Shown: positions 1 through 7,118 of the stretch, in pieces
How positions within the stretch are numbered: the stretch's first letter is position 1
Layout: each line of letters starts with the position of its first letter
Virus record (IMG/VR): IMGVR_UViG_2740892229_000001
Span: 1 to 7,118 of that record
Source of the DNA: a virus
Lineage: Duplodnaviria > Heunggongvirae > Uroviricota > Caudoviricetes
Strand: one strand, 5' to 3'
Length of the DNA stretch: 7,118 nt
The notes under the pieces: model-generated
The model's input: the letters and a program-made list of their open reading frames with translations, nothing else
What the model was told of the DNA's origin: nothing
Database searches by the model: none
Translations under genes and position numbers: made by a program

Positions 1-54
1 GTCGCTCGTAACTAAACAGGAGCCGACTTGTTCTGATTATTGGAAATCTTCTTT

Positions 55-81
55 GCCCTCCAGTGTGAGGGCGATTTTTTT
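55..81 (+). terminator. Rho-independent terminator-like hairpin upstream of the first gene
   Basis: Stem GCCCTC (55-60) / GAGGGC (67-72) with 6-nt loop CAGTGT, followed by GATTTTTTT with a 7-T run (75-81). It sits immediately before the RBS GGAGGA (85-90) of the 94..1062 gene. Confidence 0.55.
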
Positions 82-93
82 GACGGAGGATAT

Positions 94-1062
94 ATGAGTG
101 AAGTAACAGATTTAGTTGTTATTGAAAAAGCAAATGCAATGACTGTATTTCAGTCTGCCGACCAGATTGAAGAAATCCTTCAAAAGGTTGAACGTGAAGT
201 TATGTCCTTTGTGCCTGATATCACAACGGCAAAGGGCAGAAAGGAGATCGCTTCTCTGGCGTATAAAGTTGCGCAGACGAAAACATATCTCGATGGTCTT
301 GGCAAAGACCTTGTTGCTGAACTGAAGGAAATTCCAAAGCTAATTGATGCCAACCGCAAGACAGTGCGTGATCGACTTGATGAGCTGAAAGCCAAGGCGC
401 GCCAGCCTCTTACTGATTATGAGGATGAACAGGCACGGATTAAAGCCGAAGAAGAAGCTAAGGCAGCAGCTGAAGCTCTCGCAAAGCAAATTGAGTCTGA
501 CCATGAAATAGCTATTTTGATGGATCGCGAATTTGACCGCCAAAGAGAAGAGGCAAGACTCAAAGCGGAGCAGGAAAAGCGAGAGCATGAAGAACGCTTA
601 AAAAGAGAAGCTGAAGAGAAAGCCAGAGCAGAAGCCGAAGCAAAGGCAAAAGCCGAAATTGAAGCAGCAGCAAGGCGAGAAGCAGAAGCTAAGGCCGCAG
701 CGGAACGTGCAGAGCGTGAACGCATTGAAGCCGAGCAACGAGCACAGCGCGAAGCAAAAGAGGCAGCAGAACGAGCTGAAAGAGAAAAGCAGGCAGCAAT
801 TGAAGCAGAACGCAGAAAAGCACAGGAGGAGGCTGAACGAATCCGTCGCGAGGCTGAAGCAAAAGAGCAAGCCAGAATAGCAGAAGAAAAAAGAATCAAG
901 GACGAAGAAGAGCGTAGAGCAAAGGATAAAGCTCACCGGAAAGAAGTAAATAACAAAATACTTGCTGACCTTATCAAGGTTGGTGCATCAGAAGATGTTG
1001 CTAAAAATATCATAACAGCCATCGTAAAAGGCGAAGTATTCGCAACAAAAATAACCTACTAA
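94..1062 (+). CDS. Hypothetical phage coiled-coil protein (globular N-terminus, long E/A/K/R-rich repeat region, short C-terminal domain)
   Basis: ORF-track frame 40..1062; preferred start is ATG 94 with RBS GGAGGA at 85-90, since the TTG start at 40 would read through the terminator hairpin at 55-81. The middle third is low-complexity (AEAEAKAKAE / REAEAKAAAERAERE type heptads). No family confidently recognised. Confidence 0.6.
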   Translation: MSEVTDLVVIEKANAMTVFQSADQIEEILQKVEREVMSFVPDITTAKGRKEIASLAYKVAQTKTYLDGLGKDLVAELKEIPKLIDANRKTVRDRLDELKAKARQPLTDYEDEQARIKAEEEAKAAAEALAKQIESDHEIAILMDREFDRQREEARLKAEQEKREHEERLKREAEEKARAEAEAKAKAEIEAAARREAEAKAAAERAERERIEAEQRAQREAKEAAERAEREKQAAIEAERRKAQEEAERIRREAEAKEQARIAEEKRIKDEEERRAKDKAHRKEVNNKILADLIKVGASEDVAKNIITAIVKGEVFATKITY

Positions 1063-1086
1063 TAAAACCAACATAAGGAACCACCC

Positions 1087-1218
1087 ATGATTTACGCAAT
1101 CGCGGGAGGCGCTCGCATGGGTGCCTTCCAACTAAATGAATCTTTACTTGAACGAATCACCCGTAAATTACGTGACGGATGGAAAAGAGTTGAGGTCTTA
1201 TTATGCGCAATGAAATAG
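1087..1218 (+). CDS. Small hypothetical protein (43 aa)
   Basis: ATG 1087 preceded by AAGGA (1075-1079) at 7-nt spacing; translation MIYAIAGGARMGAFQLNESLLERITRKLRDGWKRVEVLLCAMK; stop TAG 1216-1218. Below the ORF-track size cut-off; hand-translated. Confidence 0.4.
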   Translation: MIYAIAGGARMGAFQLNESLLERITRKLRDGWKRVEVLLCAMK

Positions 1219-1355
1219 CCATCAATCACCAGATACTTCGTGCTGCACAAAACAAAGCAGTAATAGCCAGATTTATTGGTGATTCCAAAATGTGGCTTGA
1301 AGCAAATAAAGCGATGAAATCAGCTATCAACCTTCCATGGTATCGCAGGAAATGA
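1203..1355 (+). CDS. Small hypothetical protein (50 aa)
   Basis: ATG 1203 preceded by GAGGT (1192-1196); translation MRNEIAINHQILRAAQNKAVIARFIGDSKMWLEANKAMKSAINLPWYRRK; stop TGA 1353-1355. Overlaps the previous small ORF by 16 nt. Hand-translated. Confidence 0.4.
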   Translation: MRNEIAINHQILRAAQNKAVIARFIGDSKMWLEANKAMKSAINLPWYRRK

Positions 1356-1522
1356 GTTTTACAGATAACTGGTCAGACGAAGAATTCATTCGTCAGATGA
1401 AAGAATTAATCGGTAACGAAGGAGATATTCATGTCACTTGCAACCACAGTGAAGGAGAGCAAGTTACAGAGGCGCATGTACACGCAGCAGGCGTTAATGT
1501 ATCGCCAGAAGGGAGATCGTGA
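1352..1522 (+). CDS. Hypothetical small protein (56 aa), uncertain
   Basis: Internal ATG 1352 of ORF-track ORF 1337..1522, forming an ATGA overlap with the stop of the 1203..1355 ORF. The Shine-Dalgarno is poorly spaced (AGGA 2-3 nt from the ATG), the C-terminal half is H/V/G-rich, and it overlaps 1431..1601 out of frame for 92 nt. Confidence 0.25.
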   Translation: MSFTDNWSDEEFIRQMKELIGNEGDIHVTCNHSEGEQVTEAHVHAAGVNVSPEGRS

Positions 1523-1601
1523 AGGTGTTCGCGTATTTTTGAATGCGGCAAAGACTGAAGTATTAAATCAGCGTTATTTCCTTGGGCCATGTCCATTCTG
1601 A
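1431..1601 (+). CDS. Small hypothetical protein (56 aa)
   Basis: Strong RBS GAAGGAG (1418-1424) 6 nt before ATG 1431; translation MSLATTVKESKLQRRMYTQQALMYRQKGDREGVRVFLNAAKTEVLNQRYFLGPCPF; stop TGA 1599-1601, 8 nt before the SSAP start. Not in the ORF track (below size cut-off); hand-translated. Confidence 0.5.
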   Translation: MSLATTVKESKLQRRMYTQQALMYRQKGDREGVRVFLNAAKTEVLNQRYFLGPCPF

Positions 1602-1609
1602 GGTGAATT

Positions 1610-2317
1610 ATGGATTTGAACAAATTCGATGAGCCATTCAGCCCTGAAGATATCGAATGGCGAATACAGCAAAGCGGTAAAACACGCGATGGCAAGGTGT
1701 GGGCTATGGTGCTGGCTTATGTCACGAACCGGGCAATCATGAAGCGCCTGGACGATGTTTGCGGCAAAGCAGGATGGCGCAATGAATACCGCGATATTCC
1801 CAACAACGGCGGAGTTGAATGCGGCATATCAATCAAGATTGATTCCGAATGGGTAACCAAATGGGATGCTGCTGAAAACACGCAGGTAGAAGCCGTCAAA
1901 GGTGGTCGTTCCGGTGCAATGAAGCGCGCTGCCGTTCAGTGGGGAATCGGTCGGTATCTGTATAACCTTGAGGAAGGTTTCGCACAAACATCTCTCGATA
2001 AAAAGCAGGGGTGGCACAGGGCAAAACTGAAGGATGGAACAGGGTTTTACTGGCTCCCTCCAACGCTGCCCGGCTGGGCAATCCCAGCATCAGATAACAA
2101 ACCATCACCAGAAAATACCAACCAGAAATCTCCATCGGTTGACTGCGAACAAATCCTGAAAGACTTCAGCGATTATGCATCGAAAGAAACTGATAAGAAA
2201 AAACTCATCGAGCGTTATCAGCGTGACTGGCAATTAATGGCTGGAAACGAGGAGGCGCAGGCTAAATGCGTTCAGGTAATGAACATCAGAGTTAACGAGC
2301 TAAAACAGGCGGCATAA
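1610..2317 (+). CDS. Rad52-superfamily single-strand annealing protein (Sak/Erf-like phage recombinase)
   Basis: 235-aa ORF with RBS GAGGTG at 1600-1605. Contains the segment KGGRSGAMKRAAVQWGIGRYLY, which matches my recollection of the conserved DNA-binding core of Rad52/Sak-type annealases. Its position directly upstream of ssb is typical of phage recombination modules. Family assignment is from memory, not a search. Confidence 0.75.
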   Translation: MDLNKFDEPFSPEDIEWRIQQSGKTRDGKVWAMVLAYVTNRAIMKRLDDVCGKAGWRNEYRDIPNNGGVECGISIKIDSEWVTKWDAAENTQVEAVKGGRSGAMKRAAVQWGIGRYLYNLEEGFAQTSLDKKQGWHRAKLKDGTGFYWLPPTLPGWAIPASDNKPSPENTNQKSPSVDCEQILKDFSDYASKETDKKKLIERYQRDWQLMAGNEEAQAKCVQVMNIRVNELKQAA

Positions 2318-2791
2318 ATGGCAAGCAGAGGCGTAAATAAGGTGATCATTATTGGTCGCCTTGGGCATGATCCAGAAATCAGATATTCACCATCAGGAAC
2401 GGCATTTGCAAACCTTACAGTTGCTACGTCAGAACAATGGCGTGATAAGCAAACTGGAGAGCAAAAGGAGCAGACGGAGTGGCACCGCGTGGTAATGAGC
2501 GGGAAACTGGCAGAAATTGCCAGCGAATATCTGCGAAAAGGCTCTGAGGTTTATCTTGAAGGCAAATTGCGGACAAGAAAATGGCAGGATCAAAGCGGAC
2601 AGGATCGGTTCACTACTGAAGTCATCGTGGGCGTTGGTGGAACTATGCAAATGATTGGTGGCAAGCAAGGAGGCAATGAACAGTCTTCACCTCAGCGAAA
2701 TAACGGTCAGCAACAAAGACAGCAATCTCAGCAGCATGGGAATCACAGCGAACCACCTATGAACTTCGACGATTCGGATATTCCGTTCTAG
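2318..2791 (+). CDS. ssb: Single-stranded DNA-binding protein (phage-encoded SSB)
   Basis: 157 aa. The N-terminal OB fold aligns closely to E. coli SSB ([70 protein letters not shown]), followed by a G/Q-rich linker and the acidic tail [12 protein letters not shown]. Start ATG 2318 directly abuts the SSAP stop (TAAATG). Confidence 0.95.
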
Positions 2792-2800
2792 GAGATGAAT

Positions 2801-3280
2801 ATGAAAATCTGCTCAAGATGCCATCAACAGAAGGAAGAAAGGGACTTTCAAATCAGAAGAGCATCCAGAGATGGATTAACTGCCGCTTGCCGGGCTTGCC
2901 TGGCTGAATACGACAAAGAACGCGCTGGATTGCCACATCGAGTATCAGCAAGGAGAGAATATCAATCATCGGAACGCGGAAGAGAACGGTGTAACGCAGC
3001 CAAAAAGCGGTTCATTCAGAGCAACCCATGGAAAAGAAAAGCCCACATCATTGTGGGTAATTTTTTGCGCGACGGTAAGCTAATCCGACCACCACAATGT
3101 GAGTGCTGCGGATCAGAATGTAAACCACAGGCGCACCACTGCGACTACAGCAAACCAACCGATGTGATGTGGCTCTGCAAGTCATGTCATGTCGAGTGGC
3201 ACAAACATAACAAACCTATCTACCCAGACGAGGAACCAGTAACTCTCCCCTTCCCTCGTCACGCTATTCACGCAATTTAA
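2801..3280 (+). CDS. Cys-rich HNH-like zinc-finger protein (putative HNH endonuclease-family protein)
   Basis: ORF-track frame 2795..3280; ATG 2801 preferred because AGGAG (2790-2794) is then 6 nt upstream. The C-terminal segment CECCGSECKPQAHHCDYSKPTDVMWLCKSCHVEWH fits the HNH beta-beta-alpha-metal pattern (CxxC ... HH ... D ... LCxxCH..H). The N-terminus has a second Cys cluster (CSRCH ... CRAC). Confidence 0.5.
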   Translation: MKICSRCHQQKEERDFQIRRASRDGLTAACRACLAEYDKERAGLPHRVSARREYQSSERGRERCNAAKKRFIQSNPWKRKAHIIVGNFLRDGKLIRPPQCECCGSECKPQAHHCDYSKPTDVMWLCKSCHVEWHKHNKPIYPDEEPVTLPFPRHAIHAI

Positions 3281-3293
3281 TCAGGAGAAAATC

Positions 3294-3587
3294 ATGCCAG
3301 CGCCTCTGTATGGTGCGGATGACCCGCGCCGCTGTTCCGGCAATTCCGTATCGGAGGTGCTGGATAAATTCAGAAAAAACTACGACCTGATAATGTCGCT
3401 ACCGCAGGAAACGAAAGAGGAAAAGGAATTTCGCCATTGTATATGGCTTGCAGAGAAAGAAGAACGCGAGCGAATTTACCAGACATCAATCCGACCATTC
3501 CGCAAAGCCACATATACCCACTTCCCTGAAATTGACCCGCGCCTGCGTAATTACCGCTCACGCTATGGCGCTATCAGTAATGACTGA
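3294..3587 (+). CDS. Hypothetical protein (97 aa)
   Basis: ORF-track ORF; RBS AGGAG (3283-3287) 6 nt before ATG 3294. Charged and hydrophilic; no family recognised. Confidence 0.6.
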
Positions 3588-3597
3588 GGAATTTACC

Positions 3598-3765
3598 ATG
3601 AGAGGACTTGCATACAATCCAGGAATTCTTCCGGCAGAAATGATTATTCGCCAACGCGTAAGGCCAATGCCATCGAGAGAGGAATTGCTTAAGAGAAATA
3701 GTTTCGGTTCTGTTAACGACAACAAATATCTGAATGCGATGTGGCGCAAAGGAGGCAACCAGTGA
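3598..3765 (+). CDS. Small hypothetical protein (55 aa)
   Basis: Internal ATG 3598 of ORF-track frame 3448..3765, chosen because it follows the upstream stop (3585-3587) and has GAGGA (3586-3590) at 7-nt spacing. Translation [55 protein letters not shown]. Confidence 0.5.
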
Positions 3766-4460
3766 GCAAGATTGACTATCAGGTACTGCGTGAGGCAGCA
3801 GTAGCAATTGAAACAGTAGCAACGCCTCAAAAATTGCTGGCATTTCGTATGAAAGTCACACCTCAGGTTGTGCTGGCATTGTTGGATGAACGGGAAAGAA
3901 ACCAGCAATACATCAAACGCCGCGACCAGGAGAACGAGGATATTGCGCTTACGGTTGGGAGGCTGCGCGTTGAGCTGGAAGGCAAAGACAGCAAAATAGC
4001 CAATCTTACCGCCGAACGCGATGCTCTTCGCGAAGGTGAGATAGGCGACGCCAGGCATAGCAACACACGGGCCGCAGCTGATATCTACTTCCAACTGGTC
4101 GAGGAGTGCGAAATTCCTGCTGGCGGATCTCTGGTCGAGTACGTTGACGATATGCGCGAGAAGCTGGAAGCCGCAGAGAAGCGCATTGCAGAACTGGAAG
4201 CACGGGAAATAAAACCAGCCAAAGGCGAAGTTCTTGTCGTTGTCTCTGGTTTTACTGGTTGCGGGAAAAGCGCCATTGCCGGGGAAATAGAAATTGCGAT
4301 GAAAGCTATTGGTGTGCCGGTTCAATGGACTAATGGCGATGCAGAAAAGCATATGACCGGCGCTGACTGGCTGACAGCGATTGAGATGTACAAACCAACT
4401 GTGCGCATCGTGGAAGTTAATGTGCCACGCGCCGCTGGCATTCGCATCAAAGGAGAGTGA
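3762..4460 (+). CDS. Coiled-coil phage protein, possibly Ead/Ea22-like, with a short alpha/beta C-terminal domain
   Basis: ORF-track frame 3741..4460; GTG 3762 preferred because AAAGGAGG (3748-3755) lies 6 nt upstream and it gives a GTGA overlap with the upstream stop. N-terminal [12 protein letters not shown] plus coiled-coil stretches ([39 protein letters not shown]) resemble, from memory, the Ea22 family of lambdoid accessory proteins. C-terminus carries a Walker-A-like string GFTGCGKS. Confidence 0.45.
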
Positions 4461-4461
4461 T

Positions 4462-4671
4462 ATGGCTATTGCCGCAAGTTACACCATGCATCTCTATTGT
4501 GACTGCCGCCAGTGTACGGAAGGTGTATATCCAGTGCCAGACTTCGGTGAGTATATCGGTACGTCATGGTCTGGTTGTGCAAAAGAGGCGCGCAAGGATG
4601 GCTGGCGAATAAGCAAAGACAAAACGCGTGCTTTTGCGCCCGGGCATAAAGTTTTGAGGATTAACAAATGA
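4462..4671 (+). CDS. Small Cys-cluster protein (69 aa), possible zinc-ribbon
   Basis: Internal ATG 4462 of ORF-track frame 4381..4671; AGGAG (4451-4455) 6 nt upstream; starts 1 nt after the upstream stop. Translation MAIAASYTMHLYCDCRQCTEG...SGCAKE...; CxCxxC plus a distal Cys and His. Confidence 0.5.
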   Translation: MAIAASYTMHLYCDCRQCTEGVYPVPDFGEYIGTSWSGCAKEARKDGWRISKDKTRAFAPGHKVLRINK

Positions 4672-5588
4672 CCACTATTACCAAAGAGCGACTGCTGACA
4701 ATCAAGCAGTGGCGCGAAACATACGGACCTGGTAGCAACGTTGTACTGCCAGCAGAAGAAGCGGAAGAACTGGCACGGATTGCTCTGGCAGCGCTGGAAG
4801 CTGAACCTGTTCTGTATCAGTCCTGCACTCGCCCCACTTGGAATAGCGGTGTTCCGTGGACGGAATGGAAAGAACGTAGTCGTGAGGGCTACGAAAACGA
4901 TTTGCGCTTTACAGACACGCCTGACCATGCCGGTTGGATAAACAAATGCCGAAAACTATATACCACTCCGCCAGTTCCTGTAATACAGGCTGATGTCGCG
5001 CAGGCAATTGAAAAACTCAAACGGAAATTAGTGGAATGCAATCGCTATAACTACTGCGCAGATGCAGTTAAGGGCGTTGAGTATGCCTGCCACGCTGCCA
5101 TGCTTCAGGGTAGCCAACCTGTAAGCCAAACTTACAAGTTTCCAGTTAATACACCTTGCCAGGATGCGCCAGCCCATATCTGGCTGCAAACAGCTGGAGT
5201 ATGGCCAGAAGATGGCGAGTTAAGCGAATTAACGTGGTGCAGCCACAATCAGCACCATGATGACACGCTATATGTTCGAGCTGACCTTGTGAATGGCAAC
5301 TATCCGGTAACTCCGGATGGTTGGATAAGCTGTAGTGAGCGAATGCCTGTAATTGGCGAGCTAAATTGGAGAACTAGTTTTCCTTTGCTGATTACGTGTG
5401 AGATCGGCGTTATACCTGCTTATTACGGCTTTGTAAGCATTAATGGTGAAAGACATTATGGCTTTATGGAGAGCTTTAAATACGGAGATGAGCACGGCAA
5501 CCACCCTCAAACTAATGAATATGGTCTGATTAGCAATGTAACCCACTGGATGCCGCTGCCAGAACCGCCGGAGCAGGATGGTGAATGA
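4668..5588 (+). CDS. DUF551-domain phage protein
   Basis: 306 aa; ATG 4668 gives an ATGA overlap with the upstream stop; GAGGA (4656-4660) 7 nt upstream. The C-terminal ~90 aa end in ...NVTHWMPLPEPPEQDGE, matching my recollection of the DUF551 signature (W-x-PLPEPP) common in lambdoid prophage accessory regions. The N-terminal ~200 aa is not recognised. Confidence 0.6.
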   Translation: MTTITKERLLTIKQWRETYGPGSNVVLPAEEAEELARIALAALEAEPVLYQSCTRPTWNSGVPWTEWKERSREGYENDLRFTDTPDHAGWINKCRKLYTTPPVPVIQADVAQAIEKLKRKLVECNRYNYCADAVKGVEYACHAAMLQGSQPVSQTYKFPVNTPCQDAPAHIWLQTAGVWPEDGELSELTWCSHNQHHDDTLYVRADLVNGNYPVTPDGWISCSERMPVIGELNWRTSFPLLITCEIGVIPAYYGFVSINGERHYGFMESFKYGDEHGNHPQTNEYGLISNVTHWMPLPEPPEQDGE

Positions 5589-5674
5589 TGCCGCCAGTTA
5601 AAGTTGTGATTATCACTTTGGTGATGATAGTGATTGCGAGAATCATGTCTGGTGAAATTGGGTGGATATGGTAA
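5588..5674 (+). CDS. Putative 28-aa hydrophobic micro-protein (single transmembrane helix)
   Basis: ATG 5588 overlaps the DUF551 stop (TGATG; an in-frame ATG at 5585 is also possible). Translation MPPVKVVIITLVMIVIARIMSGEIGWIW; stop TAA 5672-5674. Hand-translated; not in the ORF track. Confidence 0.3.
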   Translation: MPPVKVVIITLVMIVIARIMSGEIGWIW

Positions 5675-5721
5675 TGGCTAAGGCAGCAGCAGAGCGCAAC
5701 TAACAATCCTCGCACTAGCGG

Positions 5722-5734
5722 GGATTTCTTTTAT
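5722..5734. repeat. Left copy of a 13-bp direct repeat GGATTTCTTTTAT flanking the 5746..6546 gene
   Basis: Exact 13-mer GGATTTCTTTTAT at 5722-5734, repeated at 6550-6562; both copies are preceded by GCG(G). Confidence 0.5.
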
Positions 5735-5745
5735 ATGGGGATAAT

Positions 5746-6546
5746 ATGACCATCCACTTTCACGGCAGCCCAATATGGGGGGATGAGCATGCCCCTACAG
5801 ATATGCTGATTAAAGCCCTTTACCGTGATGGTGGGGCTTTTGTTTCATTTGCCAGACCAGAGCAGATGAAAAAGATTGCCATGTTCCCTTGTGATATACG
5901 CCTTGATAACGGCGCTTTTAGCGACTGGATGAAAGCATTAAAGAAAGGCACTCCGGTAGAGTGGAGTAAGAGGCGAGCAAAATTCTACGACTTTGTTGGG
6001 AAGTGGTTCAGCAGAATTGAATGGTTTCTTATACCTGACGTTATCGAAGGGACAGAGGCAGAAAACGACGAGCAGATTGAGTTGGTTCCTGATTGGCTAA
6101 AATCAAAAGCGGTTCCGGTCTGGCATACCGACGAATCAATTGAACGTCTTTTACGCCTTTCTGGCAAATTTGAATGGGTGGCGATTGGATGCTGCGGCCC
6201 ACACAGGCACATACGCTCTAAATGGTGGGAACAGAGAATGGATGAAGTTTTCACTGAGCTTTATATCAATCGTAATTTGAAAGTGAAAATTCATGGTCTT
6301 CGAATGCTCGACGTGAGAGTTCTTGGTATGTATCCGTTCGCCAGTGCGGATTCTACTAATGTTGCTGTTAACGTACCGAAGACAGAGAAGCGATTTCCTG
6401 AGATTACTGACAAACTGGCACGTACAGCTGTACTTCGCGCTGCTATTGAAAAGGTGCACCCGCCATCGATATCAGCATGGGTAGACAGAAAGATGAGAGA
6501 GCCGGCGCAAGCCGGTTTTTTATTTGAATTCACCGACGCCGCTTAA
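5746..6546 (+). CDS. TGT-fold (tRNA-guanine transglycosylase-like) protein, candidate DpdA-like DNA 7-deazaguanine transglycosylase
   Basis: 266-aa ORF, clearly coding. Motifs occur in the same order as the queuine-TGT barrel as I remember it: HFHGSPIWG (cf. TPCFMPVGT), FPCDIRLDNGAFS with Asp at 5905-5907 (cf. ILTDSGGFQ), FLIPDVIEG with Asp at 6037-6039 (cf. MIFDEC), WVAIGCCG from 6187 (cf. GYAVGGL), and a later ASADSTNV. The C-terminal CxCxxC...H zinc module of canonical TGT is absent. Functional call is inference only. Confidence 0.45.
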   Translation: MTIHFHGSPIWGDEHAPTDMLIKALYRDGGAFVSFARPEQMKKIAMFPCDIRLDNGAFSDWMKALKKGTPVEWSKRRAKFYDFVGKWFSRIEWFLIPDVIEGTEAENDEQIELVPDWLKSKAVPVWHTDESIERLLRLSGKFEWVAIGCCGPHRHIRSKWWEQRMDEVFTELYINRNLKVKIHGLRMLDVRVLGMYPFASADSTNVAVNVPKTEKRFPEITDKLARTAVLRAAIEKVHPPSISAWVDRKMREPAQAGFLFEFTDAA

Positions 6547-6549
6547 TGC

Positions 6550-6562
6550 GGATTTCTTTTAT
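6550..6562. repeat. Right copy of the 13-bp direct repeat GGATTTCTTTTAT
   Basis: Exact 13-mer at 6550-6562, 4 nt after the stop of the 5746..6546 gene and immediately before the terminator hairpin. Confidence 0.5.
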
Positions 6563-6565
6563 CTG

Positions 6566-6590
6566 AACTCGCTACGGCGAGTTTTGTTTT
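6566..6590 (+). terminator. Rho-independent terminator after the TGT-like gene
   Basis: Stem AACTCGC (6566-6572) / GCGAGTT (6577-6583), loop TACG, followed by TTGTTTT (6584-6590). Confidence 0.6.
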
Positions 6591-6603
6591 ATGGAGATGA
6601 TAA

Positions 6604-6771
6604 ATGCACTTCCGAGTCACAGGTGAATGGAATGGAGAGCCATTCAACAGAGTTATCGAAGCAGAGAACATCAACGACTGCTATGACCACTGGATGATAT
6701 GGGCGCAGATAGCACATGCAGAAGTAACCAATATTCGAATTGAAGAACTGAAAGAACACCAAGCCGCCTGA
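6604..6771 (+). CDS. Small hypothetical protein (55 aa) between the moron and xis
   Basis: RBS GGAGA (6593-6597) 6 nt before ATG 6604; translation MHFRVTGEWNGEPFNRVIEAENINDCYDHWMIWAQIAHAEVTNIRIEELKEHQAA; stop TGA 6769-6771. Hand-translated; not in the ORF track. Confidence 0.5.
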   Translation: MHFRVTGEWNGEPFNRVIEAENINDCYDHWMIWAQIAHAEVTNIRIEELKEHQAA

Positions 6772-6784
6772 TGGCGGTTTTTTC
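6763..6784 (+). terminator. Rho-independent terminator overlapping the stop of the 55-aa gene
   Basis: Stem GCCGCC (6763-6768) / GGCGG (6773-6777), loop TGAT containing the stop codon, followed by TTTTTT (6778-6783). Confidence 0.55.
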
Positions 6785-6828
6785 TTGCCTGATTTACAGG
6801 TTCGATTCCCTATTCGGAGATAGCACTC

Positions 6829-7029
6829 ATGCAACACGAACTACAGCCTGATTCACTGGTTGATTTGAAATTCATCATGGCCGATACTGGCTTCGGTAAG
6901 ACCTTCATCTATGACCGGATTAAGTCCGGCGACCTGCCTAAAGCCAAAGTTATCCACGGGCGAGCAAGATGGTTATATCGTGATCATTGTGAATTCAAAA
7001 ATAAGCTCTTAAGCCGCGCCAATGGGTAA
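6829..7029 (+). CDS. xis: AlpA-family excisionase / DNA-binding protein (Xis-like)
   Basis: 66 aa; RBS GGAGA (6816-6820). LVDLKFIMADTGFGKTFIYDRIKSGDLPKAKVIHGRARWLYRDHCEF fits the AlpA/Vis-type winged-helix pattern (helix with TG, IY..IK.G.LPK, GR..W...D). Position at the 3' end of a lambdoid early-left operon, with a further ORF opening at 7022 that overlaps its stop. Confidence 0.7.
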   Translation: MQHELQPDSLVDLKFIMADTGFGKTFIYDRIKSGDLPKAKVIHGRARWLYRDHCEFKNKLLSRANG

Positions 7030-7118
7030 AATAGCGGGTAAAATATTTCTCACATCTAAAAAACACCATTCCAATCAATCCCCTGCCGCGTCAAGTAGAT
7101 GTCTGCAGGGGACACCAT

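Follow-up and report, generated by a model that had tools for sequence, protein, structure and literature searches.

Genes of the block

The DNA analysed here is a 7,118-nucleotide (nt) stretch of phage sequence (positions 1 to 7,118 of IMG/VR record IMGVR_UViG_2740892229_000001), referred to below in its entirety as the window, and our subject is a block of five small genes within it that lies between a phage ssb gene and a DUF551 gene. All of the real genes of the window are on the + strand. The block comprises a gene for an HNH endonuclease-like protein of 159 amino acids (aa; 2801..3280, +), abc2 (97 aa; 3294..3587, +), a DUF2737 gene (55 aa; 3598..3765, +), an Ead/Ea22-like gene (232 aa; 3762..4460, +), and a gene for a 69-aa cysteine-containing protein (4462..4671, +). 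The HNH gene starts 9 nt after ssb, the successive gaps within the block are 13, 10, −4 and +1 nt, and the gap into the DUF551 gene is −4 nt; the GTG start of the Ea22-like gene overlaps the stop of the DUF2737 gene (GTGA), and the 69-aa gene shares an ATGA overlap with the DUF551 gene. A Shine-Dalgarno (SD) sequence is present 6–8 nt upstream of each start—AGGAG, AGGAG, GAGG, AGGAGG and AGGAG, in that order. An initial annotation of this DNA, made from the sequence alone, had described five chained + strand open reading frames (ORFs) with strong SD sites, and both features are confirmed, with gaps of −4 to 13 nt at the ORF coordinates given above.

The five ORFs are genes rather than chance ORFs, because all of the proteins match PHROG families at E ≤ 1e-36, three of the five exceed a Pfam gathering score, and each exact protein falls within a 90% cluster of 93–1262 members, whereas the long antisense ORFs at 3558..4352 (−) and 4494..4928 (−) match no family. 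A promoter scan identified no promoter-like site within the block, and the terminator-like hairpins found there lie solely inside coding sequence. An Rfam scan of the whole window (E ≤ 0.1) gave no match, with neither a group I intron around the HNH gene nor a known small RNA.

The whole window is 100% identical to a segment of the Escherichia coli 2013C-4991 chromosome (NZ_CP027355.1, 5305519-5312635, minus strand). In this source genome the RefSeq/PGAP annotation omits the HNH ORF, and no RefSeq feature lies under the gene in the five best-matching other genomes, out of approximately 100 E. coli genomes with this gene. The same annotation begins the Ea22-like gene at 3807; we place the start at 3762 because of the N-terminal homology (MSKIDYQ...) and the AGGAGG SD sequence.

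The initial annotation could assign no function beyond HNH-like and Ea22-like resemblances. Those two resemblances stand, but the 97-aa protein can be identified as Abc2, the 55-aa protein belongs to DUF2737, and the 69-aa protein is a member of PHROG 926.

The block as a string of cassettes

The chromosomal element containing the window is a prophage with a P22-type portal, scaffold, P22 major capsid, and gp4/gp10 DNA-stabilisation genes; it adjoins dsdC. In the prophage, N, cIII, kil, the Rad52-type gene and ssb are located upstream of the block, and torI/xis followed by dsdC downstream. The gene order of the window, read along the + strand, is a gp33-like gene, cIII, kil, two small ORFs matching PHROG 'recombinase' entries, a Rad52/22-type annealase gene (1610-2317, +), and ssb (2318..2791, +; PF00436 at 2.1e-38), which codes for a 157-aa SSB ending ...NFDDSDIPF before its stop; then come the five block genes, the DUF551 gene, a DpdA/TGT-like gene, a 55-aa gene, and torI/xis. 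This order is collinear with Sf6 genes 33-17, with HK620 hkaM-hkaC, and with P22 erf...xis. The window is the PL (early-left) operon of a lambdoid, P22-like phage of the Sf6/HK620 type, and the five-gene block is its 'ea' segment; the earlier description of an accessory stretch between the recombination genes and xis is borne out by the collinearity with Sf6, HK620 and P22.

The closest counterparts are Sf6 genes 28-21 and HK620 hkaL-hkaE, which have in common with the window the series annealase, ssb, gp26 HNH gene, abc2, DUF2737 gene, ead/Ea22-like gene, a small ORF, DUF551 gene and xis, the shared parts being 95–98% identical in DNA sequence. Sf6 differs from the window by the additional genes 24 and 22 and by its Ea22 variant, whereas in HK620 the HNH gene is missing and Sak4 is used; hkaF of HK620 and eaI of P22 are replaced in the window by the 69-aa gene. 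The gene families and their order are already known from phages sequenced two decades ago, and it is the particular combination alone that is rare.

The proteins of the window were scored in 80 IMG/VR loci anchored on a near-identical Abc2. DUF2737 is present in 78 of the 80 and the HNH protein in nine, while the C-terminal module of the Ea22-like protein and the 69-aa protein are each found in five. Coverage of the block stays below 80% in every phage record (58% in the best, Bas106), and only one of 5426 complete E. coli genomes, namely the source genome, has at least 80% coverage of the window. The Ea22-like variant and the 69-aa gene do, however, occur in other E. coli prophages and in Stx phages. 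From the presence counts, the rarity of the full combination, and the conserved ends of the Ea22-like gene around variable middles, it follows that each of the five genes is a cassette of its own, and that their adjacency here is fortuitous; the block is a string of independently exchangeable cassettes and not one system. A comparison of gene content had been suggested in the initial annotation, and it does reveal variable content; the portrayal of the five genes as one coupled unit did not survive it, given their presence in 78, 9, 5 and 5 of the 80 loci.

We consider that the block as a whole is best explained as an Sf6/HK620-type early-left accessory string of five separate cassettes with the roles proposed below, at a probability of about 0.72. 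Several points weigh against this explanation: the activities of all five block proteins are predicted ones; the role of the Ea22-like protein in lysogeny is assigned by analogy with its family only, because its C-terminal domain is unrelated to that of lambda Ea22; and rightward co-transcription from PL, together with translational coupling, is deduced from gene order and spacing. The value of the locus for discovery is small, since its arrangement is that of Sf6, HK620 and P22 and its sole clear host-takeover gene, abc2, has already been characterised structurally. Accessory-gene screens in lambdoid phages could nonetheless draw on three candidates that are widespread and inexpensive to assay: the abc2-DUF2737 pair, the 69-aa Cys protein, and the Walker-A module that the Ea22-like protein contains.

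Abc2

The 97-aa protein, which the initial annotation regarded as unassignable, is nearly identical to Abc2 of P22, a relationship that had been missed. It matches PF11043 (Anti-RecBCD_p2) over positions 1-97 of 97 at 6.2e-65 (215.9 bits, cut-off 25) and phrog_656 at 4.1e-55; a phmmer comparison with P22 Abc2 (PDB 8B1T chain A) gives 2.8e-59 with seven mismatches in 97 aa, and the protein is 96% identical to those of Sf6 and HK620. P22 Abc2 binds RecBCD and is thought to hijack it for the phage recombinase, with Pro68 of Abc2 docking into PpiB; in the work that purified and solved the Abc2-RecBCD(-PpiB) complex, no phage gene other than Abc2 was expressed (PMC9836394). Pro68 is kept in the window protein, as read from its sequence (...SIRPFRK).

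By analogy with the near-identical P22 protein, for which the mechanism has been shown, the window Abc2 is a known host-takeover, anti-RecBCD factor: it would bind RecC's Chi-recognition domains and turn RecBCD from a destroyer of phage DNA into the resection partner of an annealase. The counterpart in P22 (8B1T/8B1U; PF11043) has the same length and the same P68, and its gene is likewise located downstream of the phage annealase. The annealase itself differs: that of P22 is Erf, whereas in the window the Rad52-type protein (1610-2317) would fill this role together with the phage SSB. There is no abc1 homologue between the annealase gene and abc2 in the window.

Possible anti-defence functions

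The initial annotation put forward the whole block as candidate host-takeover or anti-defence genes, an interpretation that is partly supported: Abc2 fits it as an anti-RecBCD factor, but nothing links the other four proteins to anti-defence. The profile and structure searches that it had recommended did place Abc2, DUF2737 and the Ea22-like protein in Pfam families, but they yielded no functional signal for DUF2737 or the 69-aa protein.

A broader form of the same idea is that the block is an anti-defence island, with at least one of the four non-Abc2 proteins acting as a direct inhibitor of host defence, for example of restriction-modification or BREX. The location is suggestive, in that the block occupies a recognised accessory hotspot next to abc2—published screens treat the abc2 neighbourhood as an 'accessory region'—and its proteins, which are small and non-essential, are expressed early and present variably; moreover, the DUF2737 and 69-aa families are also found in virulent phages, as broadly useful counter-defence genes often are. 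The N-terminal zinc ribbon of the HNH protein weakly matches a PHROG annotated as 'Lar-like restriction alleviation' (7.5e-7), and Sf6 has a Lar-like gene in this region, but the match is confined to the CxxC...CxxC ribbon. General searches of PDB, Pfam, NCBIfam and BFVD gave no match, in sequence or fold, between any of the four and a characterised anti-defence protein. The supplements of two published accessory-gene screens were searched with N-terminal peptides and with the terms DUF2737 and Ea22, and the sole match in the tested lists was Abc2, included there as a control; DUF2737 and Ea22 appear in them as neighbourhood annotations only. The published phenotype of the Ea22 family is, furthermore, a pro-lysogenic one (PMC7093339, PMC10834534). 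On balance we regard an anti-defence island as unlikely; a counter-defence role yet to be discovered is conceivable for either DUF2737 or the 69-aa protein.

The HNH gene and its junction with ssb

The product of the HNH gene is 100% identical to Sf6 gp26. It has a zinc ribbon (CxxC...CxxC) in its N-terminal part, then a linker that is helical, and at the C-terminus an HNH (ββα-Me) motif, C100-x2-C103 ... H112-H113-x-D115-Y ... W-L-C126 ... H130 ... H134. Residues C100, C103, H112, H113, D115, H130 and H134 are invariant in 29 homologues with identities as low as 34%, and C126 is nearly so. The AlphaFold2 model has a predicted local distance difference test score (pLDDT) of 93 and contains a β-β-α element at residues 110-136; the tail has low pLDDT. 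Neither this protein nor any of the 29 homologues matches the Pfam HNH families, NCBIfam and PADLOC also return nothing, and PDB searches with the sequence and with a profile of the 29 homologues give chance-level matches or none.

The family is scattered. It is represented in 559 phage records, mostly at less than 60% identity, in unrelated virulent and temperate groups that include Vibrio, Erwinia and Bacillus phages and Staphylococcus Kayvirus. Comparison of the HNH protein with KsaII (I-KsaII) shows 35% identity over the whole length (E 2e-29). KsaII is encoded in a polA group I intron of Staphylococcus phage K/A3R (PMC5618024). I-KsaII and the window HNH protein share the zinc ribbon, the linker and the C-terminal ...AHH.DY.KP....WLC..CH, but the window gene is free-standing, without a detected intron, and its position is the ssb 3′ end, as opposed to the interior of polA. 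The contexts of relatives include the polA group I intron and a 145-kilobase Pectobacterium phage, while in a Vibrio phage and a Hafnia prophage the homologues adjoin ssb or exonuclease genes.

The boundaries of the HNH cassette can be defined by comparison with HNH-less relatives. In blastn alignments of loci L005 and L015 with the window, homology breaks after nt 455 of ssb and resumes at 3235 (CCAGTAACTCTCCC...). The inserted cassette accordingly spans 2762..3234 (+) and comprises a recoded ssb tail with its stop, an SD sequence, and ~145 codons from the start of the HNH gene; it is followed by a conserved junction, or 'boundary', at 3235..3293 (+) that consists of a remnant of an ssb C-terminal extension (PVTLPFPRHAIHAI and stop) and the abc2 SD sequence. 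Across 69 nt this junction matches L015 at 100% identity, against only 72% DNA identity for the remainder of the L015 ssb. The preceding 455 nt of ssb are 97% identical between alleles, whereas the last 27–30 nt differ at ~10 positions and by a 3-nt indel, the tail being recoded in the HNH-bearing allele only.

The proteins on either side of the insertion reflect this arrangement. The SSBs of HNH-less loci (L005, L012, L015 and L017) are 168–171 aa long and have the canonical ...DDDIPF tip followed by a 15-aa extension, such that they end ...DFDDDIPF-APVTLPFPRHAIHAI; the corresponding empty ssb allele reads ...GATTTTGACGACGATATCCCCTTTGCACCAGTAAC... in this region. In the HNH-bearing arrangement, seen in the window at 2738-2791 and 3235-3280, the SSB ends with a free ...NFDDSDIPF, and it is the HNH ORF that terminates in ...PDEE-PVTLPFPRHAIHAI. 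The last 14 aa of the HNH protein derive from the former ssb extension, which explains both the annotation in Sf6 that gp26 shares 14 contiguous residues with SSB and the low pLDDT of the tail. Of the 5426 E. coli genomes, 99 carry the HNH gene and at least 297 have the empty junction. The slot that separates ssb from abc2 is seen, among Rad52-type relatives, in four states—empty, with the HNH gene, with a 3′-5′ exonuclease gene, or with both—and a variant of the HNH protein with only 47% identity occupies the same slot and has the same tail.

Because of the precise presence/absence junctions, the recoded tail, the scattered family and the homology with KsaII, we propose that the HNH gene is most likely a selfish, free-standing homing-type endonuclease cassette in the 3′ end of ssb, as judged from its sequence relationships. 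Such a cassette would persist and spread by cleaving the empty ssb allele in relatives that co-infect the cell, with recombinational repair following; the cleavage and super-Mendelian inheritance that this entails, like the mechanism itself, are ones that we infer. The gene can be labelled an I-KsaII-family homing-type endonuclease at the ssb 3′ end.

A stronger version of this proposal concerns the consequences for SSB. The SSB tip is recognised by partner proteins, and a 15-aa extension would be expected to mask it. It is conceivable, if rather improbable, that the HNH gene is an active homing element whose insertion at the ssb end switches SSB from a capped to a free ...DIPF tip. If so, a selfish element would toggle the engagement of the host SSB interactome by a phage SSB, a neat case of such an element altering the product of its host gene.

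A different view of the HNH protein is that it is a working part of the recombination module, cutting or nicking DNA so as to supply ends for Abc2-modified RecBCD, the Rad52-type annealase and SSB. The gene does sit between ssb and abc2, in a slot that can alternatively hold a 3′-5′ exonuclease; among Abc2-anchored loci it has been seen only with the Rad52-type annealase and the ssb type of the window, and the neighbours of the Vibrio phage and Hafnia prophage homologues could be read in the same way. About three-quarters of the sites with the junction are empty, however, and the gene is absent from 16 of 25 sampled Rad52-type loci and so is dispensable; its relatives are found in such unrelated contexts as the polA intron and the Pectobacterium phage, and a recoded flanking ssb tail carried within the cassette is typical of homing cassettes. 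We therefore doubt that the HNH protein has this role and prefer to view its gene as a homing-type cassette.

Three further observations concern this gene. One related prophage, at locus L088, has a PF13392 HNH_3 gene (2060-2527) upstream of ssb and a 47%-identical variant of the gp26 family (3001-3468) downstream, which suggests that ssb is a repeated target for endonuclease cassettes. The source genome contains a second copy of the HNH gene, 100% identical, at NZ_CP027355.1 416448-416881, presumably in another prophage. Finally, the 90% cluster of the HNH protein also lists 157-aa SSB sequences, with which it shares no similarity; this is probably an artefact of fused or chimeric gene calls.

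DUF2737

The 55-aa protein matches PF10930 at 7.4e-30 (103 bits, cut-off 25) over positions 1-51 of 53. Its equivalents are orf56 of P22 (71% identity), HkaI of HK620 (89%), gp23 of Sf6 (93%) and gp38 of HK97. A PDB sequence search gave chance-level matches or none, and a literature search on DUF2737 function found nothing.

In 78 of the 80 Abc2-anchored loci the DUF2737 gene directly follows abc2 (by 10–11 nt) or is separated from it by one inserted gene, and P22, HK620 and Sf6 have this pairing too; the numbers of phage records are similar, with 225 for Abc2 and 221 for full-length DUF2737. The core of the protein (approximately residues 23-51) is present in ~470 further phage genomes, mostly of virulent Guernseyvirinae (Jerseyvirus and Kagunavirus), which are outside the groups in which Abc2 was found. 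The two core-only loci that were inspected (L086, 3441-3596; L087, 3456-3626) place the gene in a cluster of small genes between the lysis genes and terminase. Since the core motif occurs in Guernseyvirinae without abc2, DUF2737 need not act through Abc2. That it is an obligate Abc2 partner in a two-gene RecBCD-modifying unit, as the downstream adjacency and the near-equal record counts might imply, is very unlikely in view of the core motif outside the Abc2 groups and of the Abc2-RecBCD(-PpiB) complex, which was obtained without expressing any phage gene besides Abc2, and the linkage may reflect nothing other than a shared recombination block.

The Ead/Ea22-like and 69-aa proteins

The Ea22-like protein matches PF13935 across residues 2-121 at 2.1e-18 (67.7 bits, cut-off 27) and is 72% identical to HkaG of HK620 and 36% identical to EaD of P22. 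Conserved 5′ (MSKIDYQ...) and 3′ ends flank variable middles in this gene, and a 'boundary sequence' in the Sf6 annotation falls at the 5′ end. A PDB search with the whole protein (E ≤ 1) gave at most chance-level matches, none of them an Ea22 entry.

Ea22 proteins of lambda and Phi24B favour lysogeny, and the family is known for its variable C-terminal domains (PMC7093339, PMC10834534). The window protein resembles these and P22 EaD in its N-terminal and central Ead_Ea22 region and in its place in the operon, but it differs from lambda Ea22 in having a 73-aa Walker-A module that is unrelated to the solved lambda C-terminal domain. By analogy with its family it would modulate the decision between lysis and lysogeny, its own addition being the swapped module.

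The 73-aa module (approximately residues 153-225; 4218..4436, +) is highly conserved and contains a Walker-A-like GFTGCGKS and a VRIVE strand, which may be a Walker B; across 11 diverse representatives the pattern G-x-T-G-x-G-K-S does not vary. The module is found in 446 representative clusters, at the C- or N-termini of otherwise unrelated proteins of up to 623 aa, and is a mobile domain, 60–68% identical across clusters (P0395-P0466); the longer proteins that bear it have no informative Pfam partner domains. Profile matches in PDB (UvrA, gluconate kinase and APS kinase) have E ≥ 0.01 and cover the strand-loop-helix only, Pfam matches are below the cut-offs, and the similarity to P-loop proteins is at the level of the Walker A motif only.

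The 69-aa protein matches PHROG 926 at 9.2e-37, and homologues are present in 433 phage records that include Stx phages and virulent Ackermannviridae. The invariant residues are Y12 C13 D14 C15 C18 ... P60 H62 K63, a pattern that suggests a CCCH metal site (C13/C15/C18/H62) that is probably zinc-binding. The AlphaFold2 model (pLDDT 77) is a small alpha/beta fold, and a structure search with it found no informative neighbour. Pfam, NCBIfam and PADLOC gave nothing for this protein, and a PDB sequence search gave chance-level matches or none. Homology with EaI of P22 and HkaF of HK620, whose genes have the same position, was considered and rejected, as the identities are 17–24% and there is no shared motif.

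Flanking genes

Upstream of cIII, the gene at 94-1062 (+) encodes a 322-aa charged protein rich in Ala, Glu, Lys and Arg that is a homologue of Sf6 gene 33 (PHROG 1376); PGAP names for it are 'coiled-coil domain-containing' or 'TolA'. A 'Gp33' of the HK75 recombination locus, which may be of the same family, reportedly triggers the OLD abortive system, according to a 2026 preprint.

Downstream of the block, the DUF551 gene is an unbroken ORF of 306 aa (4668-5588), which RefSeq/PGAP splits into a 'pseudogene' and a shorter coding sequence. The 157-nt interval between it and the DpdA-like gene is the sole sizeable intergenic gap downstream of the block, and it contains a terminator-like hairpin with a T-run at 5705-5726 (+). 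In a PADLOC scan of the window the only match is the xis/AlpA-like protein ('mad1'), which is generically excisionase-like.

The 266-aa 'hypothetical' protein encoded at 5746-6546 (+) has no match in Pfam, NCBIfam or a PDB sequence search, and matches PHROG 887, 'queuine tRNA-ribosyltransferase', at 4.8e-102. It is present in one of the 80 Abc2-anchored loci and has homologues in 106 phage records, in one of which the region of the match also spans a gene annotated as 6-carboxytetrahydropterin synthase. It may be a DpdA-like 7-deazaguanine DNA-modification enzyme; if so, it would be a more plausible anti-restriction gene than any within the coordinates of the block.

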